Below are positions 4,557 through 28,353 of a stretch of 64,000 nucleotides of DNA, one piece after another. A program made the position numbers and the translations under genes. Each line of letters starts with the position of its first letter. Position 1 is the stretch's first letter. The notes beneath the pieces are model-generated. The model saw nothing but the letters and a program-made list of their open reading frames with translations, was not told the DNA's origin and ran no database searches. This DNA is from an uncultured Gammaproteobacteria bacterium. Its GTDB lineage: Bacteria; Pseudomonadota; Gammaproteobacteria; UBA4575. The DNA lies in NCBI GenBank assembly GCA_943789445.1, contig CALSUC010000001.1:468758-532757 (forward strand), in the 5' to 3' direction.

Positions 4557-4633
4557 GGCTATGTAGCTCAGTTGGTTAGAGCACAGCATTCATAATGCTG
4601 GGGTCGGTGGTTCGAGTCCACCCATAGCCACCA
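4557..4633 (+). tRNA. tRNA-Met(CAU), elongator type
   Basis: GGCTATG acceptor stem, anticodon arm CAGCA-TTCATAA-TGCTG, GGTTCGAGT, CCA end; resembles enterobacterial metT rather than the initiator tRNA. Confidence 0.95.
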
Positions 4634-4755: not shown

Positions 4756-5205
4756 GTGATTGAACACATAACAGAACAGCAAATCCTACTACGATTATCT
4801 TTAGCGATGGTTGTTGGCTTGCTGATAGGGATTGATTCTTGGTACAACCGAAGAAATGCAAGTGTTCGGATTTACTGTGTTGTCGCAGTTACCTCAACGA
4901 TGACCATGATGTTGATAAGTAATCAAACTGGGAATCACCCAGAAGCATTTAGTCGAGTGCTTGCAGGTTTAATTACCGGTTTTGGATTTTTAGGTGGCGG
5001 TATTATTATGCGGCAGTCTGAAACCCACCAATTATTTGGATTAACCACTGCGGCAACAATTTGGGGTTGTGGCTTAATTGGTGCTTGCTTAGGTGCAGGG
5101 CAGTACAGCATTGCAGCACACGCAACAATAGCAATGATGATTGTTCTCTATGTTAATTTAGATGGCCTGATGCAGCGTGTTGGGATCAGAAGAAAATCTG
5201 ATTAA
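4756..5205 (+). CDS. MgtC/SapB family membrane protein (divergent)
   Basis: LLRLSLAMVVGLLIG, SRVLAGLITGFGFLGGGII, GLTTAATIWG..LIG..LGAG; AGGAGAGG RBS before the GTG. Confidence 0.85.
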   Translation: MIEHITEQQILLRLSLAMVVGLLIGIDSWYNRRNASVRIYCVVAVTSTMTMMLISNQTGNHPEAFSRVLAGLITGFGFLGGGIIMRQSETHQLFGLTTAATIWGCGLIGACLGAGQYSIAAHATIAMMIVLYVNLDGLMQRVGIRRKSD

Positions 5206-5560
5206 AGTAAGCCTCAAATAGACCTGCCTGTAATTTTAAAAACCAATATTTTTTACTGGTCTCAGTTCCACATAAGATCTGACGAAACCACTGAGGCATA
5301 TTGGCAATAGCTCATTAGGGCACTCAATCATAAGACTGTTATCAGGAATATTCGTCTTGGAATGCTTTTAGGCTGTTTTAGCAGACATAAGTAGTGCGAA
5401 TATTCATATTTTTGCGGCTGAATTTATATTAAAATAGCGTAGTCATGTGCTTTTCTCGGCAATAACATTCCTTAACATGACGATACTGGCTATGTTTTGG
5501 GCCTAAGTGCCCATCACAATGGTTGAATACAGAACTTACCGTGACCGCGTAAATAGATGT

Positions 5561-6235
5561 ATGGCTATTTTTGACTCAGTAGTATTCATTGTGGCTCGCC
5601 GTCCTCATGCTGCGAGTGGCTTTAAGTTATTTCCTTTTTCCTTGTTTATCTCTTGTGTATTCCTCTTTTCTTCTGCGTTTGCAGCAGAGCCCATCAGTCA
5701 GGCTACTGATTGTACTGAAATGGAAGTGCAGGCCGATATTAATCCAGAGCTGAGTAAAGATGAAAATCTGCAGCGACTGTCAGAGCTGTTTTATGAATCA
5801 CTCAATACAGTCACACATTGTGAATCAGCCAGTGATTCAGTGAGTGGAGCACAGTCTTCCACTGAAGGGGGTATGGGTAATGCTGCGGCCGGTGTTGCTG
5901 CCTCAGATATTAGTGGAACAGAAAGTGATGAGTCCCTGTCAGAGAGTGATGCTGATTCAGATCAAAATGCCTTTGAGGGTACTGCTGAGTATGCGTCTGA
6001 GATGGATGCAATCGAGATGGACGATCTCGACATGGCTGAGCGTGATGCAGAAGAGAAAGGGGGTGGGACTAAGGCGCCTAATGATATCCCGCCGGCTGAT
6101 AATGACTCGATATTCGAAAAGCAGATACGTGAAGCAGCAGAAAATGAAACCGATCCAGAGGTCAAAGAGCGTCTTTGGAATGAATACCGTAAGTACAAAG
6201 GCTTGCCGGTAAAACCAGTTAAGGAGAAGTCATAG
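5561..6235 (+). CDS. secreted acidic hypothetical protein (gene 1 of the envelope operon); start uncertain, ORF open from 5507
   Basis: Hydrophobic stretch ending SSAFA-AE (signal-peptide-like), D/E/S/A-rich middle, helical C-terminus DNDSIFEKQIREAAENETDPEVKERLWNEYRKYKG. Confidence 0.75.
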   Translation: MAIFDSVVFIVARRPHAASGFKLFPFSLFISCVFLFSSAFAAEPISQATDCTEMEVQADINPELSKDENLQRLSELFYESLNTVTHCESASDSVSGAQSSTEGGMGNAAAGVAASDISGTESDESLSESDADSDQNAFEGTAEYASEMDAIEMDDLDMAERDAEEKGGGTKAPNDIPPADNDSIFEKQIREAAENETDPEVKERLWNEYRKYKGLPVKPVKEKS

Positions 6236-7539
6236 TGTGGATGTGGGCTAAGCAGGTAATTATTTATTTGCTGGTACTGAGTATGGTGGCCTGTAATTCA
6301 CAAGCCATGTTCAACACTAAAGATGATTCGGTAGACCAAGCAAGCGTTGGCCCTGCTACCTCATCAAAGATTGAAGCATCGACGGTGGATGAACAGCCGG
6401 TTAGTAAGGGGCGTAAGTTAGACGTCATTATTCCTGTGTTTGACTCAGGGCTAGATGATGAGGTTATTGGTGAGACGGTGTGGGCAGAACTGCGACGTGC
6501 AGAAGCAACTATTTTTGCTAATCAATTAAAAGCAACATTGGATGCGACCGGCCAGTTTGCCGCCGTTAGAGTGACGCCAGATGCTAATGCAACCGGTGAG
6601 CTCTATATTCAAGGCAGGATCGAACAGTCTACTGGACATGATGTTGAGATCTCATTGAGTGTTTCAAGTATTGCTGGTGAAGATGTAATCGCACGTTCTG
6701 GTGCGGGTAGCTTCTCTTTCTCTCGATTAATCAATCGTGATGGACGCTCTATTAAAAGCTTTGAACACACGGTCGATAAAAATTACTTCATGGACCCTAG
6801 GAATAATAAGCAGGAGGCATATCAGCCTGTTTTTGATAAAGCCTCTGACTTTGTTGTGTCACTTTTGAAAAAGTATTCAGAAGCTGAAAAGACCGAGTTG
6901 AGCAGTCTATCTGATCTACGTTTTGCCGCTAGTTTTTCTGAAGATGCATTCTCTGAGTATATGGTGACTAAAAAGGGTGAGACTCATTTAGTCGGCATGC
7001 CCAGTATGGATGACCCGATGTATCAAAAAGTCAGGGCGCTTCGAGTGCGAGATCAATTGTTTATCGATAATCTCCAGAACGAATATCAAGGCTTTAACCA
7101 GCAGATTAATGAAAGTTATCTGTTATGGCAGGAGCAAAGTTTAGAAGAGCATGTCCTGCAGAAAGAGGCTAAAGCACGTTCAACCAAAAAGATATTGGGC
7201 GGCATTGCTTTAATCGGTTTAGCCATATTGTCTGCCTCATCTGATTCTGGACAGAACACTGTTGGTGATAACACAGCTGCAACAGCTGCAGTGACAGCAG
7301 GGGTGGCGGCGGCTGGCCTTATTTCATCAGGCATCCATGATCGTAAAGAAGCAGCGATGCATAACGAAACCATCAAAGAACTAGGTCAGTCGGTTGATAT
7401 TGAAATGTCTCCACAAGTGGTGGCCTTTGAAGAACGTGAAAAAGAATTAGTGGGTGACTCGGCAGAGCAATTTCAACAGTGGCGCTCATTTTTGAAGACG
7501 ATCTATGAGCTAGAAAGAACACCGGATGTTCAGTTGTAA
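6235..7539 (+). CDS. hypothetical lipoprotein with a glycine-zipper-like hydrophobic hairpin (gene 2)
   Basis: Lipobox-like LSMVA-C, Asn at +2; internal KKILGGIALIGLAILSA...TAAVTAGVAAAGLISSG; start overlaps the upstream stop, with AAGGAG RBS. Confidence 0.8.
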   Translation: MWMWAKQVIIYLLVLSMVACNSQAMFNTKDDSVDQASVGPATSSKIEASTVDEQPVSKGRKLDVIIPVFDSGLDDEVIGETVWAELRRAEATIFANQLKATLDATGQFAAVRVTPDANATGELYIQGRIEQSTGHDVEISLSVSSIAGEDVIARSGAGSFSFSRLINRDGRSIKSFEHTVDKNYFMDPRNNKQEAYQPVFDKASDFVVSLLKKYSEAEKTELSSLSDLRFAASFSEDAFSEYMVTKKGETHLVGMPSMDDPMYQKVRALRVRDQLFIDNLQNEYQGFNQQINESYLLWQEQSLEEHVLQKEAKARSTKKILGGIALIGLAILSASSDSGQNTVGDNTAATAAVTAGVAAAGLISSGIHDRKEAAMHNETIKELGQSVDIEMSPQVVAFEEREKELVGDSAEQFQQWRSFLKTIYELERTPDVQL

Positions 7540-7544
7540 ATATC

Positions 7545-9002
7545 ATGTTGAAGGAAGAGGTTGAAGTAGCAAAAGGAAATCAGCGTCAAGGTATTTTGAA
7601 ATTCTTGATAGTGCTTTTGCTGACAGGTTTTTTGTTGGTTGTGGTTTTCTGGTTGTTGCCAAAATTGGTTTCAGTGCCAGACGTAGATAATGACAAGCCA
7701 AGTAAAACAACAAATCAAAGTGCAGCCCAGTCGTTAGGCGATCAAGCGAATAATAAAACGCCTGTTATTAGTTCCCAATATACACAAGAGCAGGCGCTGG
7801 ATGCGATTAAGGCATTTGATCAGCAACTGTTGTTAGTAGAGTCTTATCAGGCTTTGCAGAATGACATAGGCCTTATGCAAAGCATCGATAGAGTGCAAAC
7901 ACAGGTAACACAGGCCTTTACCCAAGCCAATTACGATACGGTGGTGCTTGCTCTGCAACAGTTGAGCCTTGATATTGATCAGGCAATCAATATTGCACAG
8001 CTGGCGTTAGAGCAACATCTGAGAACTGCTAGACAACTATGGCATGAAAAGCAGTTGACGCAGCTGCAAGTGGAACTAAAGCAAGCCCAGGCGATTCAAG
8101 CTGATCTGCCTGAATGGGTAGAGCTGAATGATTTGCTGATGGCGTGGCCTGAAGTGGAATCTCTATTAAGCATTGCAAAAACAGCAGGGTTCGAAGGGCG
8201 CTATCAAGAGCAATTGCAGGCTCTGACAAAGATTAGTCGCTTATCAAATGACCTACCTCAATTGACTCAGCAGATTGCAGATGTGAAAAGACAGGTGGCA
8301 GAAGATCAATATAGACAGGCTATTGCCAAGGCCGATGCCGCTAAGCGGATACCTGATTTAAGGCAGATGCGGGCTGCGATTAATATGGCTCGCCAAGTGT
8401 ATTCCCAACGCCCTGAGGTGATTCGTTTGACTCAAGAACTGGTTGAGTTAGAGCGCCAGCAAGACTATCAATTACAGCTAAGTCAGGCCGAGCTAAGTTT
8501 GACTAAGGATCAGTGGGTCTTGGCATTTAAAAACTTAAGTGCGGCTCATGATTTATATCCTAATCAACGAGATACCCAAGATAAAAAGGCCTTTGTCGCT
8601 GTTTACCTTAAGCTAATGCAAGAAAGTGCTGAGATCTTAAATCAACCAAGCTTGCTGACATCTGCGGTTAAGCGAAAGCGTGCGGCGAATATGCTGGATG
8701 GGATGGTTTTATATCGCAGTCTCAGTCTGCGTATGGCGAATATTGAAACCGAGTTGAGTAAGCAGCTTCAGCGTTATTCGCAAAAGGTAACATTGAAGGT
8801 ACTGTCAGATAATAAAACCTATGTCGAAGTCCGTAGTGTTGGCAAAGTGGGTGTTGTTGCAGAGAAGACGATCTCATTACTGCCTGGCAACTATTTGTTT
8901 GAAGGTAAACGCGTTGGCTATGTAACAAAGACGGTTAAGGTGATTATTACTCCTGAGGATCTGGATAAACAAGTGAAGGTGATTGCCAATGAGCGAATTT
9001 GA
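7545..9002 (+). CDS. single-pass membrane protein, long helical/TPR-like region, C-terminal PEGA-like beta domain (gene 3)
   Basis: TM ILKFLIVLLLTGFLLVVVFWLL; Q/L/A-rich helices; C-terminal ISLLPGNYLFEGKRVGYVTKTVKV. Confidence 0.75.
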   Translation: MLKEEVEVAKGNQRQGILKFLIVLLLTGFLLVVVFWLLPKLVSVPDVDNDKPSKTTNQSAAQSLGDQANNKTPVISSQYTQEQALDAIKAFDQQLLLVESYQALQNDIGLMQSIDRVQTQVTQAFTQANYDTVVLALQQLSLDIDQAINIAQLALEQHLRTARQLWHEKQLTQLQVELKQAQAIQADLPEWVELNDLLMAWPEVESLLSIAKTAGFEGRYQEQLQALTKISRLSNDLPQLTQQIADVKRQVAEDQYRQAIAKADAAKRIPDLRQMRAAINMARQVYSQRPEVIRLTQELVELERQQDYQLQLSQAELSLTKDQWVLAFKNLSAAHDLYPNQRDTQDKKAFVAVYLKLMQESAEILNQPSLLTSAVKRKRAANMLDGMVLYRSLSLRMANIETELSKQLQRYSQKVTLKVLSDNKTYVEVRSVGKVGVVAEKTISLLPGNYLFEGKRVGYVTKTVKVIITPEDLDKQVKVIANERI

Positions 9003-10962
9003 AGATCAGATTAAGCAAGCATCTTCACAGCAAAATACACGTTGGCTGATCTCTAGTATTAGCATCTCACTGTTATTGTTGTTTATTGGTTTATACATTT
9101 TTTCTTTAACGGTCTACACCATTCAGATCGAACCACTTGAAGCGGATGAGGTTTCTACGCAGTCGATTGAGACAGGGTTTGGGTTTAGCTATAAACAAAA
9201 AGTATTCGCCTTTTCAGACAAGACCAGTCTGCGTGTTAGTGCCACAGGCTTTAAAGATAAAGAGCTGGTCTTAAAGGACCATGTTAAGGATGGCATTGTT
9301 GCCTTTGATCTAGAGCCTAAGTTAGCGCTGGTTTCATTGCAGACTAAGCCAATGACTGTCGTTGATTGGTATCTTGATGGGCGTTTTGTTGAGCGTGCCT
9401 CAAGCCTGCAACAAGAACTTGATCCAGGTGAATATGTATTCAGTGCACAGTCTAATTACTATCAAGCTATCGACGATAGTATCAGTGTTAAAGCCGGGCT
9501 GGATGTTAATCGCATGTACCAGTTATCACCACTGACAGGTACATTGACGATCCATGCAGATGTACCATCAGCAAGACTTACAGTGGATGCTATGCCCTAT
9601 GAGCTAGGTGATGTGCTAAGTAAGCAGGCAGCCAAGTATGCGGTTGAGGTCAGTGCACCAGGTTATTACTCTATCCAAGAAGACATCTCTTTAGATAAGA
9701 AAGATCTCGCGATTCAGCGACATTACAAACTTCGACCTAAACCTATTGCATTGGCGCTGAACTTACAGCCTAAGGGTGGTGTGTTACTGGCTAATGGTCT
9801 TCAGATTAAACCTGCTGACACTATAAAATTACCGTATCAAAGACAACTTATCTTTGAATACACAAAGCCAGGCTATGTTAGTCAAGTGCTACAGCGTAAC
9901 TTTAAGCCGGGAGAACAATTCAGGCTAGTCTTGTCATTAATAGAACAAAAGGCTGCAGTCAGTATTAACGCAAATGTTGAGTCGGATATTTATATTCAAG
10001 GCCAGCGTATTGCGAGTACACCTGCAACACTGCAGTTGCTGACAAAGGAACAGACGATAGAACTGCGTAAAAAAGGTTATCGCAGTGTTAAGCAAACGGT
10101 CACACCGAATGTTAAACAGCTGACTAAGCTGCAAATGACACTGTATACCGAGGTGCAAGCACGGCTATTGGAGGCGAAGAGCGTCTATGTCAATTCGGTG
10201 GGCACTGAATTTCAACTGATCAAGCCACAGGGACAGCAATTCACTATGGGCGGTTCACGTGATGAGCCGGGGCAGAGGGCGAATGAATTCCAACGTAAGG
10301 TACGATTAGAGCGACCTTTTTATGTGGCTAGTACCGAACTGACGGAATATCAATTTTCAGCTCGTAATGCGAATTCTAATCAACCATTAGTGAACACTGC
10401 ATGGGAACAGGTTGCCGTATTTTGTAATCAATTAAGTCTGAAAGAAGGCTTGCAGCCGTTTTATCTATTTCGTGGTACTGAATACATTGGTTTTGAAGCT
10501 AAGGCGAATGGTTATAGGATGCTTACTGAAGCAGAGTGGGAGTTTATGGCGCGTATCTATAAGCGTGATAAGAAAACTACGTTTGCTTGGGGAGATCAGG
10601 ATCAAGTGCCGGCTGAGGCGGGTAACCTTGCTGATGTCGAAAGTCAGTTAACACGCTATATTCCACGTTATAAAGACGGAGTTAGTGGCCTAGCTAATAT
10701 TAGAAGTTATGCAATGGAATTATCAGGTTTGTTTGATCAGATCGGTAACGCTAGTGAATGGGTGCATGATATTTATGACCTAACGCCACCTGATCAACGA
10801 GTAGTGTATGTTGATCCTCTAGGCCTGCCCAGAGGTAATAACCATGTGATTAAAGGCTCAAGTTATTTGTCTGCCTCTAAAACTGAAGTCAGGGCAGCCT
10901 TTCGAGATGGCTCTGCTAGTCCAAGGCCTGAGTTAGGTTTCCGTTTAGCTCGATATTTATAA
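8989..10962 (+). CDS. membrane-anchored PEGA-repeat protein with a C-terminal FGE-sulfatase (SUMF1-like) domain (gene 4)
   Basis: N-terminal TM; PEGA-like repeats (ELDPGEYVF, TPATLQL...IELRKKGYR); FGE motifs FTMGG, YRMLTEAEWEF.AR, GLFDQIGNASEWV, VIKGSSY, LGFRLAR. Confidence 0.88.
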   Translation: MSEFEDQIKQASSQQNTRWLISSISISLLLLFIGLYIFSLTVYTIQIEPLEADEVSTQSIETGFGFSYKQKVFAFSDKTSLRVSATGFKDKELVLKDHVKDGIVAFDLEPKLALVSLQTKPMTVVDWYLDGRFVERASSLQQELDPGEYVFSAQSNYYQAIDDSISVKAGLDVNRMYQLSPLTGTLTIHADVPSARLTVDAMPYELGDVLSKQAAKYAVEVSAPGYYSIQEDISLDKKDLAIQRHYKLRPKPIALALNLQPKGGVLLANGLQIKPADTIKLPYQRQLIFEYTKPGYVSQVLQRNFKPGEQFRLVLSLIEQKAAVSINANVESDIYIQGQRIASTPATLQLLTKEQTIELRKKGYRSVKQTVTPNVKQLTKLQMTLYTEVQARLLEAKSVYVNSVGTEFQLIKPQGQQFTMGGSRDEPGQRANEFQRKVRLERPFYVASTELTEYQFSARNANSNQPLVNTAWEQVAVFCNQLSLKEGLQPFYLFRGTEYIGFEAKANGYRMLTEAEWEFMARIYKRDKKTTFAWGDQDQVPAEAGNLADVESQLTRYIPRYKDGVSGLANIRSYAMELSGLFDQIGNASEWVHDIYDLTPPDQRVVYVDPLGLPRGNNHVIKGSSYLSASKTEVRAAFRDGSASPRPELGFRLARYL

Positions 10963-10987
10963 AATATCCGAAAAAGGATGCAGTGTT

Positions 10988-11110
10988 ATGAATAAAAAAT
11001 TATTAGTAGGGTTTCTTTGTTTGTTGGTGCTTTGCCTCGCAGTTGTTGGCATTGCCTATGCGGCCAAATTAAGTGTCGGCGTTCCTGTTAGCTTTCCGGT
11101 GGATATTTAA
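10988..11110 (+). CDS. 40-aa small ORF: signal peptide plus a short mature peptide (gene 5; absent from the ORF track)
   Basis: MNKKLLVGFLCLLVLCLAVVGIAYAAKLSVGVPVSFPVDI; AAGGA RBS at 10974-10978; its TAA overlaps the ATG of the next gene (TAATG). Confidence 0.8.
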   Translation: MNKKLLVGFLCLLVLCLAVVGIAYAAKLSVGVPVSFPVDI

Positions 11111-11877
11111 TGACTAAATCAATTCAAGGCATTATCGCTTTAACCCTATCTGCAATCTTAGTCCATGGCTTTTATGTGATTTTAGTGGAGCCTAATGTTG
11201 CATTAGCACAGGCCTTAATCATGCAGGGTGATGGTGAGCAGCAGCGCTCGATTTGGATTATCTTAAAAGACTTTGAACAAGAGGCATGTCTGATCTTAAT
11301 GTTTTGGGCGATCTATCTGATGGCTGAGAAATTTATTCATATCACGAAGACTAATTATTTGTTTGAAGTCGACTTCTTTAAGGACTGTGATATGAGCAGT
11401 GCGGCTATCAGCACGGTAGTCGATGACCTGGAAAATTTAAAAGGTGGCATTGCTAACACACCCTTAATTCGTACGCTTAAAGTGTCACTACGTCGATTTT
11501 TATTATCACAAGATATTCACGCAACGGCAGAGGTTATCGAGGCAGAGTGCGTTGCCTTGGGAAACAAAAACGAAGCCGAAAATTCGATGATCCGTTATCT
11601 GATATGGGCGATCCCATCGATAGGTTTCATCGGTACAGTGCGTGGTATTGGTCAGGCCTTAGCGCAGGCCGATAAGGCATTGGCTGGTGATATATCTGGT
11701 ATGACTAATAGCCTAGGTGTCGCTTTTAATTCAACCTTGGTTGCATTATTTGTCAGCATGATTCTGATGTTTCTATTGTATCAACTGCAGCGTGCGCAAG
11801 ACTCTTTGACTGTCTCGGTGAATGATTATTGTCAGAATAAGGTGTTAGACCCGCTAAGCCGAAGCCGCCTTAACTAG
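11110..11877 (+). CDS. MotA/TolQ/ExbB proton channel family protein (gene 6)
   Basis: WAIPSIGFIGTVRGI and LGVAFNSTLVAL match the ExbB/TolQ TM motifs with both conserved Thr; four hydrophobic segments. Confidence 0.92.
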   Translation: MTKSIQGIIALTLSAILVHGFYVILVEPNVALAQALIMQGDGEQQRSIWIILKDFEQEACLILMFWAIYLMAEKFIHITKTNYLFEVDFFKDCDMSSAAISTVVDDLENLKGGIANTPLIRTLKVSLRRFLLSQDIHATAEVIEAECVALGNKNEAENSMIRYLIWAIPSIGFIGTVRGIGQALAQADKALAGDISGMTNSLGVAFNSTLVALFVSMILMFLLYQLQRAQDSLTVSVNDYCQNKVLDPLSRSRLN

Positions 11878-11886
11878 ATAGATAAG

Positions 11887-12948
11887 ATGCGTCGTAACCC
11901 CACCTCTAACTTAGCGTTCATCGATATCATGAGCTGTGGTCTAGGTGCGGTTATTCTGATCTTGGTATTGCTGAAAAATCAGCAGACGACACCAGATGAG
12001 TTGGTTGAACTAGATCATGCTGCCTTAGATCAGCAGATAGCAGCCCTGCTAAGTCAGCGACAAGCGACTATGGCGAAGACTGAGGCCAAGCAATCTGCAT
12101 TGTCAAAACTGGATCAAGAGATTAATGATTTACGTGCTAGACAGTCAGTCATTACTTCTATTAAGACCACTACACTGAGTACGATTGAGCGTTTGAAATT
12201 AAAAATTCAGTCCAGCCAGCAAGGCCTCAGCACACTAATGTCAGAAGAAAAGATCAATCCGATCGAAACACAAACCATACGACAGGAAGATTATCTGGTT
12301 GGCCTGAATATAGAAGGCCAACGCATTGCTATATTGATCGATAGCAGCGCGTCTATGACCGCACGCGAGCTCATTACCATTACGAATTACAAGGTTCAGT
12401 CAGAGGCTAAACGTAGATCAGCGGCTAAATGGCAAAGGACCTTACGTATAGTCCAATGGCTGATGGCGAGAGCCCCAGAAGATTCAGAATTACTGCTGAT
12501 GTCGTTTTCTGATGAGGCAATCATACAAAGTCAGCCTAAGTGGATTTCAGTTAAGGATGAGAAGGCACTGGCAGTAACTCAAACAGCAGTACAGTCGCTC
12601 ACGCCTTATGGTGCAACGAATTTAGAGAAGGCGATTGCCAAAGTGCTGAGGCAGCGTCCAGATGCAATCTACCTGATAACAGATGGTTTGCCGACCCAAG
12701 GTTTGAGTGAGGCATCAATCTTATCCTCTGGTGGCTGTGGCGGTATAACGGCATCGAAGAAGACAGTATCCGGCGAGTGTCGTGTCACGCTATTGCGGCA
12801 GGCAGCTAGCCTGACGAATTCATTTCGTGGCAAGCTTTCAATCATCTTATTGCCTTTAGAGGGTGATCCTCAGGCCGCTCCAGAGTTGTCTAAGTGGGTG
12901 TTAAATACAGGTGGTACCTTAATCAGTCCAGCGGCCACCTGGCCATGA
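11887..12948 (+). CDS. ExbD/TolR-like TM anchor, coiled coil and vWA domain (gene 7)
   Basis: N-terminal NLAFIDIMSCGLGAVILILV with Asp in the TM; MIDAS LIDSSASM...TPYGATN...LITDGLPT. Confidence 0.85.
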   Translation: MRRNPTSNLAFIDIMSCGLGAVILILVLLKNQQTTPDELVELDHAALDQQIAALLSQRQATMAKTEAKQSALSKLDQEINDLRARQSVITSIKTTTLSTIERLKLKIQSSQQGLSTLMSEEKINPIETQTIRQEDYLVGLNIEGQRIAILIDSSASMTARELITITNYKVQSEAKRRSAAKWQRTLRIVQWLMARAPEDSELLLMSFSDEAIIQSQPKWISVKDEKALAVTQTAVQSLTPYGATNLEKAIAKVLRQRPDAIYLITDGLPTQGLSEASILSSGGCGGITASKKTVSGECRVTLLRQAASLTNSFRGKLSIILLPLEGDPQAAPELSKWVLNTGGTLISPAATWP

Positions 12949-13868
12949 TGCGAAGAGAAGCGCCAGATGCATTTGGTACTGCCTTCTTGGATATCATTTC
13001 CTGTGGCTTTGGTGCAATTGTACTTTTGATCCTGATCTTTAAATTTGAGCCTGATGTCAGTGGTCTTGCTTCAGTTAAAAACGATGATGCAAATGCTAAG
13101 ATTAAACAGCTCTATGGTCTTGTCGATGAGCTGAAAGCAGAACCAGCGATCGATAGTGAGCAGTCTGCTAAGGCCAAAGCAGCAATGTTAAAGACAGCAC
13201 AGGCTAAGCTTGAACGCGCAATGGCCGAGACTGCCAAACTGCAACAGACTTCAAGTGAGCTTAAGAAGCAACTTGGTGCGTTACAAAAACAGATTAAGAA
13301 GCAACAGATCGCAGGTACTTCAGAGGGTGATCAATCACGTCAGGATGATGAGGTCGGTGGTATTCCAGTCGATCGTGATTATGTCATCTTCATTGTCGAT
13401 ACCTCAGGCAGTATGAAAGAGATCTGGCATAAGGTGATGCGTGAAATAGATAATATATTGACCGTTCATCCTCAGTTAAAAGGCTTTCAAGTGATCAATG
13501 ATAATGGCAACTATCTAGTCAGTGGCTATGCTGGTAAGTGGATGAAAGATACACCCAGTATGAGAAAACGTGCGATGAAGCTATTTAGCTCTTGGGCGAG
13601 CATCTCAAATAGTAGCCCAGTTGAAGGGATTGAAACCGCCTTAACGCGCTATTCAAAATATACCAAGGATCTTTCGATTTACGTTATTGGTGATGACTTT
13701 ACCGGCACTAATTTTGATCAGGTTATCTTACGTACGCGGCAATTGAATAAAGGCCGTGCGCGTATCCATGCACTCAATTTCATCTCACCCAATGCATCTA
13801 CTGATCGCTTTAGTACCTTGATGCGAGAGATCTGCCGTGAAAACCAAGGGACCTTCCTGACTTTTTAA
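12945..13868 (+). CDS. second ExbD/TolR-like TM anchor, coiled coil and vWA domain (gene 8)
   Basis: TAFLDIISCGFGAIVLLILI; MIDAS IVDTSGSM...IGDD; ATGA overlap with the previous stop. Confidence 0.85.
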   Translation: MMRREAPDAFGTAFLDIISCGFGAIVLLILIFKFEPDVSGLASVKNDDANAKIKQLYGLVDELKAEPAIDSEQSAKAKAAMLKTAQAKLERAMAETAKLQQTSSELKKQLGALQKQIKKQQIAGTSEGDQSRQDDEVGGIPVDRDYVIFIVDTSGSMKEIWHKVMREIDNILTVHPQLKGFQVINDNGNYLVSGYAGKWMKDTPSMRKRAMKLFSSWASISNSSPVEGIETALTRYSKYTKDLSIYVIGDDFTGTNFDQVILRTRQLNKGRARIHALNFISPNASTDRFSTLMREICRENQGTFLTF

Positions 13869-13897
13869 TCTTAAGGTAAACCCCTAGGCTAGAGTGG

Positions 13898-14356
13898 TTA
13901 CCGCTTGGTTAGGAAGTGCTTACTCAGGTACCTATCCAATTCATTGGCAAAGGCTTTGCGGTCGGTTTGCCCATAAGGGGCTTGTCCGCCTGACTGGATG
14001 CCACTGCCACGTAAGGTATCCATGAAGTCACGCATGCTGAGTATCGATTTGATGGTGTTCGCTGTGTACATCTCGCCACGTGGATTCAATGCAGCCGCAC
14101 TTTTTTCGATGACTTCGGCGGCTAAGGGGATATCACTGGTAATCACTAGGTCGCCAGCGGTCACTTGCCTCACAATTTCGTCATCTGCTACATCAAAGCC
14201 ACCGGGGACCTGTAGCATTTTGATATTGCTTAGCCGTGGTTTATTAATCGCTTGATTAGCGACTAAGATAACTTCAACCCCAGTGCGTTCTGCTGCACGG
14301 AATAGAATGTCTTTCGCAGGTACTGGGCATGCATCTGCGTCTACCCAAATCTTCAT
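13898..14356 (-). CDS. yaiI: YaiI/YqxD family protein
   Basis: [43 protein letters not shown]. Confidence 0.93.
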
Positions 14357-14374
14357 CAGCAAGGGCTGGGTAAG

Positions 14375-15967
14375 TTATTGGTCGTCAACAGTAAGTAGGT
14401 ATTCATCATAACTGCCATGGAAATTGATCATCTTCTTATCTTTGATCTCGACGATGTGAGTGGCCAATGAAGACACGAATTCACGGTCATGGCTGACAAA
14501 GATTAACGTTCCTTCATAGTTTGCTAAGGCAAGATTGAGTGCCTCGATCGACTCCATATCTAAATGATTGGTCGGCTCATCCATGATCAGGACATTGGTT
14601 TCTAGCATCATCAGTTTGCCGAATAATAGGCGATTCTTTTCACCACCTGAGCAGACTGACGCCTTCTTATTGAAATCATCAGTGGAAAACAATAAGCGAC
14701 CGAGAGTTGCACGCACGATCTCTTCATTATGATGCGGTTTGCGCCATTGACTCATCCAGTCAAACAAATTCATAGCATGGTCAAAATCGTTATTACTATC
14801 CTGAGGGCAATAACCTAAGGTCGCATTTTCTGACCACTTGATGGTGCCAGCATTAGCCTTTAATTCATCTATTAAGCATCGTAGAAAAGTACTTTTCCCA
14901 GTGCCATTTTCGCCAATAACAGCCATACGACTGCCGGCTTCAATGATAAATCCGCCATCGCTGAATAAAGGCTCATCGTCATAACCATGACTCAAGTCTT
15001 CTACTATTAGGGCTTGGCGTTGTATCTTTTTGCTTTGTGTAAAGCGAATAAACGGATTGACACGGCTTGATGGCTTGATGTCTTCGAGTTTTATCTTCTC
15101 GATCTGTTTGGCGCGTGAGGTAGCCTGCTTTGCCTTTGATGCATTCGCTGAAAAACGGCTGACGAATTGCTGTAGATCAGCAATCTGGGCTTTTTTCTTC
15201 GCATTCTCATTCTGAGAATGTTCACGTACCGCAGTCGAGGCAATCATGAAATCATCATAATTACCTGGATAAACGCGTAATTCACCAAAATCCATATCCG
15301 CAATATGGGTGCAGATAGAGTTTAGGAAGTGCCTGTCATGCGAGATGATGATAATGGTGCTTTTGCGTTCGACAATAACGTTCTCTAGCCAGCGGATGGT
15401 GTGGATATCTAGGTTATTGGTCGGCTCATCAAGTAAGAGGATATCTGGATCAGCAAACAAAGCTTGCGCTAATAGTACGCGTAACTTCCAGCCAGGTGCG
15501 ACTTCACTCATCGGACCGCTATGGAATGATTCGGCGATGCCGGCACTCATCAGTAGTTCGCCAGCACGACTTTCTGCACTATAGCCATCTAGTTCAGCAA
15601 ATTCGACCTCAAGATCAGCAACCTTCATGCCATCTTCATCACTCATCTCGGGCAATGAATAAATGCGATCTCGCTCTTTTTTGACTTCCCATAAGTGGCT
15701 ATGGCCCATGATCACCGTGTCGACCACATTATATTCTTCAAAGGCAAATTGGTCTTGATGCAATTTACCAACACGCTCGTTTGGTGTGATTGATACATTG
15801 CCTGCACTGGGTGCAAGTGTGCCATCAAGAATCTTCATGAAGGTGGATTTACCACAACCATTGGCACCGATCAGGCCATAACGGTTACCTTCTCCAAACT
15901 TTACTGAGATGTCCTCAAATAAAGGTTTGGCGCCAAATTGCATAGTGATGTTTGCAGTAGAGATCAA
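14375..15967 (-). CDS. ybiT: ABC-F family ATPase (YbiT-like)
   Basis: [12 protein letters not shown] start; two ABC domains ([18 protein letters not shown]); [11 protein letters not shown]; no TM segments. Confidence 0.93.
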
Positions 15968-16213
15968 AACAGAGGCCTTAAAATATAATAGGGATACGAG
16001 GTATCATTTTTTGGATAATCGACGAATTTAGCTGCTTGAATAACGAGGAGCTTTCGCCGAGCAAGATGATAGCAAAATAAAGGCATGCAGAGGCATTTAA
16101 TCTCCGCGATTAGCTTAGTTGAAAAGCTGAGAATATGGTTTGGATGGGTGCTGGATTTAGCGTTAAGGCGTTGTTAGAGGAGGGGCTGTGCCCTTGAATA
16201 GAGCTTCAGCTAT

Positions 16214-16254
16214 AAAAAAGATAATAAGTGAGGGCGGTACGCCCTCACTTATTA
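16214..16254 (-). terminator. intrinsic terminator of the GST/monooxygenase operon
   Basis: Perfect 15-bp stem TAATAAGTGAGGGCG-GTA-CGCCCTCACTTATTA, followed on the minus strand by CTTTTTT. Confidence 0.85.
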
Positions 16255-16289
16255 AGGAGTAAATACTCGAACTTTAAATATTTAAAGCT

Positions 16290-16493
16290 TTAGGCATTCC
16301 ATTGATAGGCTTCTTCACCTGCGATGGCAAAAAATAGCCAAACATCAACCAATAAGGTGATCAAGAAGGCGACAGAGCTACCTAGCGCCCAGAGGATTTC
16401 TTGATGATGGCTACCAATGTCGAGTAGATAAAGACCGTAGCCTACCGCCCCAGTAAATAGCGCAATGACTAGTAAGGCTAGTTTTGTTTTCAT
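16290..16493 (-). CDS. 67-aa two-helix membrane protein, last gene of the operon
   Basis: Two hydrophobic segments; GAGAGAA RBS; lies between the monooxygenase gene and the terminator. Confidence 0.75.
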   Translation of the reverse strand: MKTKLALLVIALFTGAVGYGLYLLDIGSHHQEILWALGSSVAFLITLLVDVWLFFAIAGEEAYQWNA

Positions 16494-16550
16494 AGTGTTC
16501 TCTCAATTTTTCTCATTAGATTAAGATGAGTTGTAATTATTATGGTTTTT

Positions 16551-17735
16551 TTAGTCTGGTTTCTGGCATAGAGCCATGTCATGCCAGCCAGCTTTATAGT
16601 TCATCTTGGCAGCAATCTTTTGCTCACCCTCACTGGCTCGGTTTTCATCCCAGTCTGCGAGGTGCGGTTTAATGAAAGCTTCCCATACTGGAGGCACTAA
16701 AATCATCGCAAACATGGCGTAATAACCATAATGCGTATCTGGTGCATCACAGTCTTCAAGCTCCCAGAAATGAGTTTCACCACGGTCATGATGGTCTGCT
16801 TGACGTCCAATCTCAATGAAACCCCATTGTGTGAAAGGTGATTCAGCAACATCCCAAGAGTGGTGATAATCGATAGGTTGGCCTTTCTCGCGAATTAAGC
16901 CGTAATGCTCAAGATAATTGAGTACTTCTAATTCAAATGCTGAGATGACCCAGCTGACAACCATGACACCAAGACCTAACCAGCCGCCGGCTAACCAGAA
17001 GAAGAAAATGGAAGGTAGGCTCATAGCGTAGCCTCTGATCCAACGGTTTTGCCAAGAAATAAAAGGGATACCTAATTTCTGTAGGCGTTGCTTTTCCATA
17101 AGGAACAGGAATCGAGACTGACCGAAATGCGATAAGAGATAGTGTTTGTAGATGCTTCTGCCACGAGGCGATGTTGCAGGGTCGTCTTCACAACCAAGCT
17201 CGAGGTGATGGTTGTATACATGTGCATAGCAGAAATGCGCAATGCCGCTTAAAGCCATCATCCAGCGTGCTAGGACGAAGGTTGGGCCCTTGGTATGCGC
17301 AAGTTCATGTCCGAACATAATGCCCAAGCCTAGGTAGATCGCAGCAGAGACAGTGGCCGCACAAAGTTGTAAGCCGGTGACCCCATGCTGAATCTCAAAC
17401 CAACCATAAGTACTGACGCTAAACGGTACACCGTTGGCATATTCATATACGCGCCAGATTAAGGCCCCTTGGAGGCAGACAAAGACTGGGTATTGTACCC
17501 ACATCATGGCCTTTAATAAGCCTGGGATACCGTAGGTCTCACCGTCATCATCACGACCAGGAGGAGCGCAATGAATACCCTTCATGGCACTAGATGCTGC
17601 GTCTAAAATGATAGAAGCAATAAATAATCCGATGCCTGTCCAAACCCAGTTACCGCCAGCAACAATACCTAACAGTGCCAAGAAAATTAGAGCAGGGGTA
17701 AGAAAATAACGTAGATTAACGAGTAATTTATGCAT
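16551..17735 (-). CDS. membrane di-iron monooxygenase/desaturase of the XylM/AlkB family
   Basis: His boxes HELAH, AHVYNHH, NYLEHYGL, RQADHH; XylM-like ends (LRYFL.P ... KPHLADWD...KAGW). Confidence 0.88.
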   Translation of the reverse strand: MHKLLVNLRYFLTPALIFLALLGIVAGGNWVWTGIGLFIASIILDAASSAMKGIHCAPPGRDDDGETYGIPGLLKAMMWVQYPVFVCLQGALIWRVYEYANGVPFSVSTYGWFEIQHGVTGLQLCAATVSAAIYLGLGIMFGHELAHTKGPTFVLARWMMALSGIAHFCYAHVYNHHLELGCEDDPATSPRGRSIYKHYLLSHFGQSRFLFLMEKQRLQKLGIPFISWQNRWIRGYAMSLPSIFFFWLAGGWLGLGVMVVSWVISAFELEVLNYLEHYGLIREKGQPIDYHHSWDVAESPFTQWGFIEIGRQADHHDRGETHFWELEDCDAPDTHYGYYAMFAMILVPPVWEAFIKPHLADWDENRASEGEQKIAAKMNYKAGWHDMALCQKPD

Positions 17736-17770
17736 AAGTTGTCCCTCAATTTTTAATAATAGATAGCTTT

Positions 17771-18538
17771 TTAATAGTCCTGGATTTCGACAGATTGCAG
17801 TCGTCCAGTTTTTATATCGTCAAGGTTAGGTAGTAATTCGTAGGCGACTAAGTCTTGCCCACATTGACTCTTCTTAGTTTTAATTTTCTGCCACCAAGCC
17901 GCTACATTTTGATGTTTATTGATTAAATCAACATGTCCAGCAACAACTATGAGGTGGATGTAAGCCGTCCAATGTAGGTCGGCCCAGGTGTATTTATCAC
18001 AGACGATGTATTTGTTATTGCGTAATTGATTATCTAATGCGCTTAGATAGAGGTCCAGCCTGCTGAGTTGCTCTGCATCATTGCCTGTCGTCCCATTGAC
18101 CTCTTTATTGATCAAGTATTCTGCGACTGGCGCAAACTGCTTAATCGCAATGTCACTCCAATAATTTTGCATGGCTACAAGAGCCGCATTCAGCGGAGAG
18201 AGGCTATAACCTAAACCGCGTGCGTCGATGAAGGCAAGGATTGCTTTAGTACCACAGACCATGAAATCGGCCTCTTTAAGGCATGGTGTGATACCAAAAG
18301 GAGATATTTTTTGGAACTCAGCTTGAAATTCTTCTGCTGCCATCTTGTCTGTATTATAGGAATTCATCTCCATGCCTTGTTCACCAGCCGTGAGCAAGCA
18401 CTTCAAAGTATTAGCATCGATAGGTGTACCTAATAGTTCTAGGATGTACTGGGTCTTTTTCAGATCACCAGACAGGCCATATTTTGATGTGTCAGCCATG
18501 CCTGCTTGTGATGCCATTTTTTCGAATAGATCGGTCAT
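17771..18538 (-). CDS. glutathione S-transferase-fold protein (atypical)
   Basis: ISPFGITPCL (cis-Pro loop), YIVCDKYTWADL (N-capping box), NVAAWW. Confidence 0.8.
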   Translation of the reverse strand: MTDLFEKMASQAGMADTSKYGLSGDLKKTQYILELLGTPIDANTLKCLLTAGEQGMEMNSYNTDKMAAEEFQAEFQKISPFGITPCLKEADFMVCGTKAILAFIDARGLGYSLSPLNAALVAMQNYWSDIAIKQFAPVAEYLINKEVNGTTGNDAEQLSRLDLYLSALDNQLRNNKYIVCDKYTWADLHWTAYIHLIVVAGHVDLINKHQNVAAWWQKIKTKKSQCGQDLVAYELLPNLDDIKTGRLQSVEIQDY

Positions 18539-18576
18539 ATTAATTCCTTCTTAAATTCAGTTAGGCTTTGCTCTGA

Positions 18577-19188
18577 CTAAGTTGCATGCGCTTGAAGTTT
18601 TTCAGCGTGGTGAGGGATCCTGTCTTGCATCTGTATTAACCAGGCGGAAAGGTGTGTCAGTGACGTTAGGCTGTCGCTGATTCTTTCTTCTATTGCCCGA
18701 TAGGCGGCCAACCAGTGGATGTCAGCTAGTGTGAATTCGCCAACCATAAAAGAGTCTACTGACAGCTGTTTATCAACAGCTGTCAGTATCGTTTTTATCG
18801 CATCTTTATTGCCTTCAAAATCTGAAAGTAAGGGCTTCAATTTATCGTCAAGTAATTGAATCCAATAATTTTGTTGGGCAAGAACTCGCGCTTTCTTAGG
18901 GTGTACTGCTGGTGCACTACCTTTGATGTTGAGATAGCCAAGTAAAGCATCAGCCCGGCTCATGGTGATATCTTGATCTTCAATGATCGGTAGGCTATCT
19001 GTTTCTTTTAGATTCAAAGAATTCGAGAGGTTGCTGTCAAGAGCGCTGGCCTCGGACCAAGAGATATCAAGGTCCAGGTTCCGATGAGTTGCCAATAAGA
19101 TACATTTGAATGAATCGATGTCATTCGGCTTGCAAATCAACTTAGGCGACTGCTTTTTATTACTGCTCTTACGTGAAAAGAATCCCAT
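18577..19188 (-). CDS. second glutathione S-transferase-fold protein (atypical paralog)
   Basis: LPIIEDQD, AQQNYW, FMVGEFTLADI, HLSAWL; ATG at 19188 preceded by an AGGGGA RBS. Confidence 0.75.
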   Translation of the reverse strand: MGFFSRKSSNKKQSPKLICKPNDIDSFKCILLATHRNLDLDISWSEASALDSNLSNSLNLKETDSLPIIEDQDITMSRADALLGYLNIKGSAPAVHPKKARVLAQQNYWIQLLDDKLKPLLSDFEGNKDAIKTILTAVDKQLSVDSFMVGEFTLADIHWLAAYRAIEERISDSLTSLTHLSAWLIQMQDRIPHHAEKLQAHAT

Positions 19189-19273
19189 GGCGCTATCCCC
19201 TATTAGAGTGAAAAACCTCATATCTACTGTAAAAAAGATTACAAATGAGGATTATCTTTGCTGTTGAGGATGA

Positions 19274-19315
19274 ATGTTATTACACGGTTTTGAGGCCTAT
19301 CTTGATCTAGGTCAT
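19274..19315 (-). promoter_or_regulatory. FNR/Anr box with a -10 hexamer (class II activated promoter) for the GST-GST-monooxygenase operon
   Basis: Minus strand ATGAC-CTAG-ATCAA (19315-19302), 8/10 to TTGAT-N4-ATCAA; TAACAT at 19279-19274 puts the box centre at -41.5. Confidence 0.7.
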
Positions 19316-19411
19316 AAAGCACCAAACTAATTACAGTGTTCCCTGTAATGGTGTATTCTATTAACTATTGTTTTGAGTGATTTTGGCTGGTAGGAGTGAT
19401 GGCGCGGTGAG

Positions 19412-20149
19412 ATGAATAAAGACGATCAAAATACAGAGGAAAGGCGATGTGCTAATTGCTATTTAGCTGGGCTCTGTTTACCTCGCGCGCTGGGAAAAGA
19501 TGATTTACTGATGCTTGATGCAGCTATTAGTAGGCGAAAAACCTTGTATAAGGCTGATGCCATCTTTCATCAAGGCACTGAATCAGGCTGTATCTATGCG
19601 ATACGTTCAGGCGCGGTTCGGACCTATACCACAGCAAAAAATGGTGATGAACAGACCTTAGGCTTTCATTTGCCGGGAGATATTCTTGGGCTGGATGGCT
19701 TGGATAATAAGATTCATAGCTGTTCTGGCGTAACATTGGCTACATCGACGATCTGTGAGATTCCTCTCAAAGAGCTGCACATGCTCTGTATTAAAATGCC
19801 CGGTCTACAAAGGCAGTTGCTACATGTGCTAGGTGAGGAGATCAGTAAGGACCACACCATGTTGCTGATGCTGGCACGGTGTAATGCCGATCAAAAGTTG
19901 GCCATATTCTTCACCGATCTCTCTGAGCGGTTTGGAGAGCGTGGGTTTTCTACATGCGAATTTGAATTAACGATGACACGCAGTGAAATCGCGAATTATC
20001 TGGGTTTGGCCGATGAGACCATCAGTCGTTTGATCGCGCGATTCAAAGATAAAAACCTGATTCAGGTGCAGAGAAAAAGCATTAGGATTATAGCGAGAGA
20101 CCGGATGATTGAACTCGCTGAAGGGGAGTGCAGCCTGGATGAGGTTTAG
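19412..20149 (+). CDS. fnr: FNR/Anr oxygen-sensing CRP-family regulator
   Basis: N-terminal CANCYLAGLC cluster, fourth Cys in TICEIP, HTH MTRSEIANYLGLADETISR. Confidence 0.93.
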   Translation: MNKDDQNTEERRCANCYLAGLCLPRALGKDDLLMLDAAISRRKTLYKADAIFHQGTESGCIYAIRSGAVRTYTTAKNGDEQTLGFHLPGDILGLDGLDNKIHSCSGVTLATSTICEIPLKELHMLCIKMPGLQRQLLHVLGEEISKDHTMLLMLARCNADQKLAIFFTDLSERFGERGFSTCEFELTMTRSEIANYLGLADETISRLIARFKDKNLIQVQRKSIRIIARDRMIELAEGECSLDEV

Positions 20150-20183
20150 TCGTGGTGTTTGACCGTCTGTTTAAGCTGTAGGC

Positions 20184-21263
20184 TTAAACGTACTCGCGTC
20201 TCACATGTGCTGCGATACGACAGAGCAATTCATAAGTAATAGTATTAGCGGCTTCAGCAATGTCAGCTACCGGGATATCGTCTCCCCAGAGCTCTATGTG
20301 TTCACCAATCTCACAGTCGCAATCACTCAGATCAATCGTGATCATATCCATGGAAACACGGCCTAATACGTCACAGAGACGGCCTCGTACGCTGACTGGG
20401 ACAGTTTTTTCTAGGCTGCGTGGATAGCCATCAGCATAGCCTATAGCCACGATACCTATGCGCATATCCTGTGGGCAGGTATAGCTACCACCATAACCGA
20501 TACGGTCGCCTTGCTTGACCTGTTTGATCGCAATGACAGGTGCACGCACCGACATCACCGGTTTGAGTTCACTGACATCTGGGTGACTTTGTTCATTTTG
20601 GAATGGTGAGATGCCATAGAGTGCTAGACCTGGACGTATCCAGTCGCGCTGTGTTTTTGGGTAGGCGAAACTGGCGGCTGAGTTGGCGATGCTTCTTTCA
20701 CAACCCTCTATGCCTGCAATAGCCTGATCAAAATTGGCCTGCTGACGGTAGGTGCTCGCTTCATCAAGGATGTCGGCATTCGCTAAATGTGTCATTAGGC
20801 GTATTTTGCTGACGTTACTGCAATTGACTAATTGTTGATAGACCGTCTGTGCTTCTTCCTGAGAAAAGCCGAGACGGCTCATGCCGGTATCGATTTTTAA
20901 CCAAATACAGAGCCCCTGTTTTAACTTCTCTGAGCGTAATAGTGCGATCTGGTGTTCACTGTGCACTACCGCTTGAATATTACTGTTAGAAAAGTCTCTT
21001 AATTCCTGCTGATTAGCAAAGCCCTGAAGACAAATAATGGGATGTAATATACCGGCGCTACGTAATGTTAAGGCCTCATTGATGCAGGCGACGGCAAAGG
21101 CATCGCTTTGGTTCAAGGCCTGCGCCGTTTTAATCAGTCCGTGCCCATAGGCATCTGCTTTGACCACTGCCATCACTTTGGCATTAGGCGCATATGATCG
21201 AATCAAATTAAGGTTGTGGGTCAGCGATTCTAATCGTATCAGCGCATGGGCTGAACGGATCAT
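20184..21263 (-). CDS. alr: alanine racemase
   Basis: PLP motif VMAVVKADAYGHG, LKIDTGMSRLG, GYADGYPR, GRVSMDM. Confidence 0.97.
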   Translation of the reverse strand: MIRSAHALIRLESLTHNLNLIRSYAPNAKVMAVVKADAYGHGLIKTAQALNQSDAFAVACINEALTLRSAGILHPIICLQGFANQQELRDFSNSNIQAVVHSEHQIALLRSEKLKQGLCIWLKIDTGMSRLGFSQEEAQTVYQQLVNCSNVSKIRLMTHLANADILDEASTYRQQANFDQAIAGIEGCERSIANSAASFAYPKTQRDWIRPGLALYGISPFQNEQSHPDVSELKPVMSVRAPVIAIKQVKQGDRIGYGGSYTCPQDMRIGIVAIGYADGYPRSLEKTVPVSVRGRLCDVLGRVSMDMITIDLSDCDCEIGEHIELWGDDIPVADIAEAANTITYELLCRIAAHVRREYV

Positions 21264-28266: not shown

Positions 28267-28353
28267 GCCGAAGTGGCGGAATTGGTAGACGCGCTAGCTT
28301 CAGGTGCTAGTGGGGGTAACCCCGTGGAGGTTCAAGTCCTCTCTTCGGCACCA
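28267..28353 (+). tRNA. tRNA-Leu(CAG)
   Basis: GCCGAAG acceptor stem, anticodon arm CTAGC-TTCAGGT-GCTAG, long variable arm, GGTTCAAGT, CCA. Confidence 0.97.

Follow-up and report, generated by a model that had tools for sequence, protein, structure and literature searches.

A conserved small gene for a putative exported FPxDI peptide in the operon of a predicted TolQ-like/vWA motor

Background

A TolQ-like motor with paired trans-pore-helix vWA proteins was predicted by computation in 2025, with Idiomarina as the published exemplar (PMC12204202). The motor as published consists of a three-gene core only, and a small upstream ORF is absent from its description (PMC12204202). In the DNA analysed here (the whole stretch of 64,000 nucleotides, referred to below as the window) genes g6, g7 and g8 match this core in that a MotA/TolQ-like gene without adjacent tolR, exbD or motB is found together with the genes for two different TM-anchored vWA proteins, in which the TM helix carries a conserved Asp. 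Unlike in the published motor, the core is accompanied here by an FPxDI gene (g5) and by a PEGA/FGE-like gene (g4). The TolQ-like/vWA motor occurs widely among marine and sediment bacteria, with at least 590 relatives in one metagenome scan, and has so far been treated by computation alone. No paper describing the peptide was found, and "FPVDI" occurred in no relevant paper; the FPxDI peptide is probably an undescribed part of a predicted proton-driven envelope machine. New here are the codon-level evidence for this peptide, the size of its family, the split into short and long forms, and the negative fusion tests.

TonB boxes and TolB boxes are short extended motifs which are gripped by the tip of the Ton or Tol force transducer via beta-strand augmentation. 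The tail of the g5 product resembles them as a short, conserved, strand-like and predicted periplasmic motif dedicated to a 5:2 proton motor system. The boxes, however, are N-terminal in large load proteins (TonB-dependent transporters, TolB), whereas the g5 motif is the predicted free C-terminus of a peptide of down to 15 residues, and a free peptide of that length cannot itself be the mechanical load of a force transducer.

In vWA and integrin I domains, metal coordination at the MIDAS is completed by an acidic side chain or by a C-terminal carboxylate, the latter being the case for C3b on factor B. The g5 product likewise has a near-invariant Asp beside its free C-terminal carboxylate, and the MIDAS motifs of both vWA proteins are intact, but this Asp is an Asn in a few lineages. 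C-terminal peptides are also bound by TPR carboxylate clamps, as in Hop/STI1 with EEVD-COOH and PEX5 with SKL-COOH. The g5 tail would offer a C-terminal acidic/hydrophobic signal of that kind and the operon encodes a predicted periplasmic helical-repeat protein, g3, which is weakly TPR-like, although this similarity stays below threshold (E 0.003-0.07); in its middle region the similarity to CTPR3 and STI-1 has E 0.003-0.06.

The operon and its fifth gene

The operon consists of eight co-directional, tightly packed genes, of which g5 is the fifth, and this order was kept in 30 genomes wherever the contig reaches. The following features were assigned in the window.

5507 to 9002, + strand: g1 to g3 of the same operon (g1, acidic secreted protein; g2, probable lipoprotein; g3, TM protein)
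5507 to 6235, + strand: g1, acidic secreted protein, member of the eight-gene operon
7545 to 9002, + strand: g3, TM protein; helical region weakly resembling TPR, conserved beta domain at the C-terminus
8983 to 10962, + strand: g4, TM helix with several PEGA/beta-sandwich domains and a non-catalytic FGE-sulfatase-like domain (Pfam, AF2 model)
10975 to 10978, + strand: Shine-Dalgarno-like AGGA, 9 nt 5' of the g5 ATG
10988 to 11110 (stop included), + strand: g5, gene of 40 codons for a predicted exported micro-protein with an FPxDI tail, conserved at this position in 117 of 120 sources
10988 to 11062, + strand: predicted Sec signal peptide MNKKLLVGFLCLLVLCLAVVGIAYA, with KK in the n-region, a hydrophobic core, Gly at -5 and AYA at -3 to -1
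11063 to 11107, + strand: predicted mature 15-mer AKLSVGVPVSFPVDI, by the SPase I rule
11093 to 11107, + strand: near-invariant tail F-P-V-D-I, ending in a free carboxylate (99 distinct tails compared)
11108 to 11112, + strand: TAATG stop/start overlap of g5 and the MotA-like gene, the g5 stop sharing two bases with the ATG at 11110
11110 to 11877, + strand: g6, MotA/TolQ/ExbB-like channel subunit of 255 aa (Pfam PF01618, 1.8e-12)
11887 to 12948, + strand: g7, ExbD/TolR-like trans-pore helix (FIDIMS), coiled coil and vWA domain with an intact MIDAS (DSSAS...T...D; Pfam VWA_2)
12945 to 13868, + strand: g8, second trans-pore-helix protein (FLDIIS) with a coiled coil and a vWA-like domain that contains DTSGS (DxSxS motif)

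The ATG at 12945, which overlaps the g7 stop (ATGA), is probably the start of g8, rather than the GTG at 12894 given in the mechanical ORF list. A vWA domain was detected by Pfam in g7 only, g8 giving no vWA match despite its DxSxS motif, and none of the eight operon proteins matched the ExbD, TolR or MotB families. The trans-pore Asp was conserved in 100% of the homologues of both g7 and g8 (88 and 80, respectively). The MIDAS residues of the two vWA proteins were 96-100% conserved (80-88 homologues), with the DxSxS and the distal Asp at 100% and the g7 Thr at 99%. Both catalytic Cys of the FGE-like domain are absent from g4 of the window, and also from the aligned stretch in 28 of 28 homologues inspected.

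A C-terminal module in g1 (window 6071-6214) reads NGK-x-P-[D/E]-D-I-P-x-A-D-N-D-S...LWNEYRKYKGL and was clear in 26 of the 27 homologues; the P-x-D-I at its core is similar to the F-P-x-D-I tail of g5. In g3, conservation is highest in the C-terminal beta domain, SDNKT...VRGVGKVG...FEGKR.GY.TK..., which has ERI as its last residues.

The g5 product is MNKKLLVGFLCLLVLCLAVVGIAYAAKLSVGVPVSFPVDI, read from the ATG at 10988 to the TAA stop at 11108-11110. Its N-terminus consists of MNKK, a positively charged n-region, followed by the hydrophobic stretch LLVGFLCLLVLCLAVVG, and the same architecture was found in all family members inspected. The charged n-region, the h-region, the Gly at -5 and the A-x-A expected for Sec export and cleavage by signal peptidase I were all found in the g5 sequence. 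The first-pass annotation had described a ribosome binding site, a signal-peptide-like N-terminus ending in AYA, an FPVDI tail and a TAATG junction, all of which were confirmed in the window sequence. It had also treated the fusion of the g5 stop to the start of the MotA-like gene as part of the arrangement; this holds for the window, and elsewhere the TAATG overlap was confined to the SAR116 clade, so that the window clade and the SAR116 clade alone possess it. In other lineages the distance from g5 to the MotA-like start ranges from -4 to about +145 nt. Many MotA-like genes in the homologous loci carry a Shine-Dalgarno sequence of their own, and nearly all of these loci have an SD-like motif before the ATG chosen for the small ORF.

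Gene g4 lies directly 5' of g5 in almost all loci. In two of them (L036 and L037) g4 and g5 are parted by an insertion of about 5 kb of unrelated genes, while g5 stays with the MotA-like gene and the two vWA genes. Because this insertion leaves g5 beside the motor genes, g5 is linked to the motor module. Linked in every source that could be read, g5 is a fixed part of the TolQ-like/paired trans-pore-helix-vWA operon. The inserted stretch (3291-7897 in L036 and L037) holds an N6/N4 methyltransferase-HNH gene and MFS, LysE, AzlC and AzlD genes.

At the transcript level g5 is co-transcribed with its neighbours: seawater metatranscriptome contigs span the 3' end of g4, g5 and g6. Natural variants of g5 were present in one metatranscriptome run (L13F, L15F and V20A), all of them in the signal peptide.

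Matches to Rfam in the window were limited to three tRNA genes (952-1023, 4557-4630 and 28267-28350), the second of which is located 5' of the operon, a 149-aa membrane-protein ORF (4756-5205) lying between the two. Since tRNA genes were the only Rfam matches in the window, the reading of g5 as an RNA element was rejected; no RNA family, promoter or terminator explains the g5 region. An anti-phage system was rejected as well, there being no PADLOC match.

Conservation of g5

Positions 6000-22000 of the window are overlapped by 123 ORFs of at least 30 aa, so that a lone ORF of 40 codons is no more than would be expected by chance. It is on account of conservation, and not of the ORF alone, that g5 is considered real. 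A genome scan with the MotA-like protein as query, limited to one genome per species, gave 30 loci (45-98% identity) from Gamma-, Alpha-, Zeta- and Deltaproteobacteria and sponge symbionts. In all 30, a small ORF with FP[V/I]DI as its last residues was found directly before the MotA-like gene. From the metagenome scan, which was made with an alignment of MotA-like proteins and gave the relatives mentioned above, the best 80 were kept, down to 41% identity.

An ORF ending in [F/Y/L]-P-x-[D/N/G]-I-stop was present directly 5' of the MotA-like gene in 117 of 120 sources, and in the remaining three the contig starts less than 130 nt before that gene. The earlier reading had been made to depend on a conserved small ORF at the syntenic position, and this is where one was found. 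In 40 sources the tail pattern gave a single match per source and none elsewhere.

Among the 99 distinct tails, Pro(-4) and Ile(-1) were invariant, the former being written with four codons (CCG, CCA, CCT, CCC) and the latter with three (ATT, ATC, ATA). Phe(-5) was present in 96 and Asp(-2) in 95, the latter being replaced by Asn in three tails (FPTNI once, FPSNI twice), which belong to at least two lineages, and by Gly in one (FPVGI, at L059 3998). The stop codons of these tails were TAA (41), TGA (37) and TAG (21). Over the last 12 codons, g5 of the window and its counterpart in L008 differ at no non-synonymous and at four synonymous positions. Because Pro(-4) and Ile(-1) are invariant while their synonymous codons vary, selection acts on the amino-acid sequence and not on the RNA. 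Thus g5 is a genuine gene under purifying selection as a protein.

Some loci carried odd labels or damaged copies. The small ORF and tail codons of L005, labelled Acidimicrobiaceae, are identical to those of the SAR116 contig L017, and L027, labelled Balneolales, closely resembles the Mariprofundus locus L030; both may be mis-binned. L020, a long-read MAG chromosome labelled "complete", has a frameshift in the N-terminal part of the small ORF (about 5790-5965).

The protein family

A search with the 40-mer as a single sequence returned near-identical proteins only, and an alignment profile was needed to reach the wider family. The profile, built from 26 members, was run against 1.84 billion representative proteins (E up to 0.001) and gave 207 clusters at 50% identity of small proteins with the C-terminal motif. 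Among the 150 matches listed of the 207, lengths ranged from 36 to 109 aa and the match reached the last residue in 147. Exactly FPVDI ends 142 of the 157 family members retrieved. An HMM-type search for such ORFs beside MotA-vWA genes had been suggested in the first-pass annotation, which also mentioned hypothetical proteins ending in FPVDI; the profile search answered the suggestion, and the mention of such proteins proved to be correct. Seven divergent members which were looked up individually all lay in the same operon. Two database proteins, P0056 and P0091, continue beyond the motif (FPVDIKM...), as would follow from the loss of the stop.

No family member carries a name beyond "hypothetical protein". 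The g5 product of the window gave no match in Pfam-A, NCBIfam or PADLOC, nor did nine other members, short and long, match Pfam-A at E up to 1. Annotation length cut-offs can thus hide a subunit of an envelope machine.

Two forms were distinguished. The short forms, to which the window belongs, are 36-60 aa long; a basic n-region leads into a hydrophobic segment of varying sequence, after which come a helix breaker and a small-x-small site. All but one of 220 short forms have this site, and of these 219 sequences 199 carry Ala at -1 and 184 carry it at -3. The uncharged stretch is long (mode 18-21 residues), and among homologues the signal-peptide region varies in sequence while its character is conserved. 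The predicted mature peptide is mostly 15-20 aa long, with the consensus I-S-L-N-S-P-x-S-F-P-V-D-I.

Sec signal peptides of the textbook kind (MHR-LLLLLLLAFPSWA/Q, for example) are present in the long forms, which were found in more distant systems. An acidic region of 50-75 residues follows, its net charge lying between about -10 and -31, and the C-terminus reads F-x-P-[S/T]-E-[D/E]-[V/I]-x-x-x-Q-S-[I/V]-P-F-P-[T/V]-D-I. Judged by these sequences, the long forms are plainly soluble secreted proteins. Their loci have an extra FHA-domain protein between the MotA-like and vWA genes (L119 4807-6174) and a clear TPR protein upstream. We lean slightly towards regarding g5 of the window as the shortest version of a protein family not described before, the members of which would be small, exported to the periplasm and defined by [F]-P-x-[D]-I-COOH.

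Export of the peptide and alternative explanations

The course proposed for the g5 product is as follows. The 40-aa precursor would be exported post-translationally through Sec and cut by signal peptidase I after AYA, and the free 15-mer AKLSVGVPVSFPVDI would remain in the periplasm. There it may dock onto one of the machine's periplasmic domains, with the extended, Pro-containing strand at its C-terminus and the free carboxylate making the contact, and serve as a stoichiometric ligand or cap. We infer the export, the cleavage site, the periplasmic location and the docking of the tail, and the working part of the peptide would be the C-terminal strand together with the free carboxylate. Because the long-form homologues look soluble and secreted, export and cleavage are favoured for the short forms too. 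The earlier proposal of a dedicated exported small peptide of the MotA/vWA machine gains support, as a prediction, from the conservation of g5 and from the signal peptides of the family, and the cleavage after AYA that it foresaw, leaving the 15-mer, fits the small-x-small site of the short forms. Taken as a whole (a genuine gene, Sec export, cleavage by signal peptidase I and periplasmic docking of the tail), this explanation is the best available and has somewhat better than an even chance of being right. A lipoprotein was considered and rejected, since the Cys in the signal peptide (LVLC) is not conserved in homologues and there is no lipobox ([LVI][ASTVI][GAS]C).

Four other explanations were weighed against export and docking. 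A chance ORF or annotation artefact without a product would agree with the frequency at which ORFs of 40 codons arise by chance and with the lack of any database name for the product; every conservation result contradicts it, and it is ruled out by the conservation pattern, with a practically negligible probability. Another is that g5 acts in cis, as a leader or arrest peptide in the manner of SecM, MifM, VemP or TnaC, the conserved C-terminal residues of which would control translation of the MotA-like gene from within the ribosome tunnel, the released peptide being without function. With SecM, MifM and VemP it shares the position of a small ORF 5' of a gene for membrane machinery, an N-terminal export signal and a conserved C-terminus, here invariant in its Pro, and the TAATG junction would provide coupling in the window. 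The spacing to the MotA-like start varies over the range given above, however, many MotA-like genes are preceded by an SD of their own, and the ORF may end in any of the three stop codons. Furthermore, g5 is far too short for force-dependent release: with the signal peptide 15-20 residues from the stop it would still be in the exit tunnel, and a pulling force could not release the arrest. The long acidic paralogous forms, which bear the same tail, are also unlike these leaders, and regulation in cis is therefore regarded as very unlikely.

An uncleaved membrane micro-subunit is the likeliest of the alternatives, although it too is unlikely. The N-terminal segment would in that case be a signal anchor, and the single-pass inner-membrane protein would pack against the MotA-like ring and expose a periplasmic tail of about 15 residues, for example as a gate at the channel mouth. 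The length of the uncharged stretch in the short forms is in its favour, as are the stop/start overlap in the window clade, which suggests co-production with the MotA-like protein, and the fact that g5 remained with the motor module after the insertion. On the other hand, the hydrophobic segment is not conserved in sequence, whereas 219 of 220 short forms keep a helix breaker with A-x-A behind it, and the long forms, with short classical signal peptides and a long soluble acidic region, would need a different mode.

Binding or modification by g4, in which the adjacent FGE-like domain would take the peptide as its substrate, or the peptide would be a signal peptide that is modified or secreted, was held to be quite improbable, if a little less so than control in cis. 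The tail S-F-P-V-D, and F-x-P-S-E in the long forms, resemble the FGE recognition motif C-x-P-x-R, the pattern x-x-P-x-[D/E] occurs once in short forms and twice in long ones, and g4 is the immediate upstream neighbour in almost all loci. An extended substrate peptide is bound by FGE through its Pro (PMC6676471), and the T. curvata enzyme holds the Arg of its substrate not by a salt bridge but through hydrogen bonds and a pi-cation contact (PMC6676471). Against a substrate role stand the loss of both catalytic Cys from g4 of the window and from the aligned stretch of all 28 homologues inspected, the occurrence of S, P, T, D, A or N at position 0 of the motif, the separation of g4 from g5 by the insertion in L036 and L037, and the undocked tail in the two AF2 fusion tests described below.

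Candidate receptors

With export and docking as the preferred reading, several parts of the machine may be the receptor of the tail. The MIDAS site of one of the two vWA heads, the kind of site to which the first-pass annotation had pointed, is proposed tentatively, and a receptor other than those named here is given the same tentative standing. Carboxylate-clamp-type binding by the TPR-like periplasmic domain of g3 is more doubtful, and the FGE-like/PEGA protein g4 and the periplasmic loops of the MotA-like ring are both unlikely candidates. Because the MIDAS residues of both vWA proteins are so strongly conserved, an acidic ligand is to be expected. A strict model in which Asp(-2) binds the MIDAS is weakened, since this residue is Asn in three tails and Gly in one; it is Pro(-4), Ile(-1) and the free C-terminus that never vary in the tail, and not the Asp.

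Docking onto g4 was modelled with AlphaFold2, paired and unpaired homologues being supplied, on natural loci in which g4 and g5 are in frame and parted by a single stop that was read through. In the short-form fusion (L008) g4 was modelled with a mean pLDDT of 86.5, and the tail, at <50, was without secondary structure and undocked. In the long-form fusion (L100) the tail reached a pLDDT of only 47-57 and was likewise disordered and undocked. These models speak weakly against g4 as the receptor, and the docking onto the FGE-domain protein that had been suggested from the sequence found no support in either of them.

A bolder version of the MIDAS reading, about which we are rather sceptical, is that the MIDAS of a vWA head, located at the tip of a rotating axle, grips the FPxDI tail as its dedicated "box". 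If so, this would be the first 5:2 proton motor known with its own secreted peptide ligand, and binding of the tail by the MIDAS would be a new way of coupling such a motor to periplasmic partners. In short-form systems the free 15-20-mer would then be a removable cap or clutch, and where the long form occurs, an acidic tether would carry the ligand at its end. The acidic g1, with its conserved P-[D/E]-D-I-P, could be the ligand of the second head; that g1 and g5 are two related ligands for the two vWA heads is speculation. Whatever the receptor may be, the g5 peptide, present in every source that could be read and with a near-invariant tail of five residues, offers an experimental handle on the periplasmic grip of the machine.

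Co-variation of the tail with the other operon proteins was also followed. The only residues which change together with the Asn tails in both lineages are a P-to-R in g4 and F306-to-Y in g8, and these are too few events to carry weight. A mutual-information scan of tail positions -3 and -6 against g4, g6, g7 and g8 was dominated by phylogeny, and no meaning is attached to the slightly higher maxima for g7 and g8. In a g5-g6 fusion the tail would come to lie on the wrong membrane side, since the N-terminus of the MotA-like protein (MKKKNIP... in long-form systems) looks cytoplasmic.
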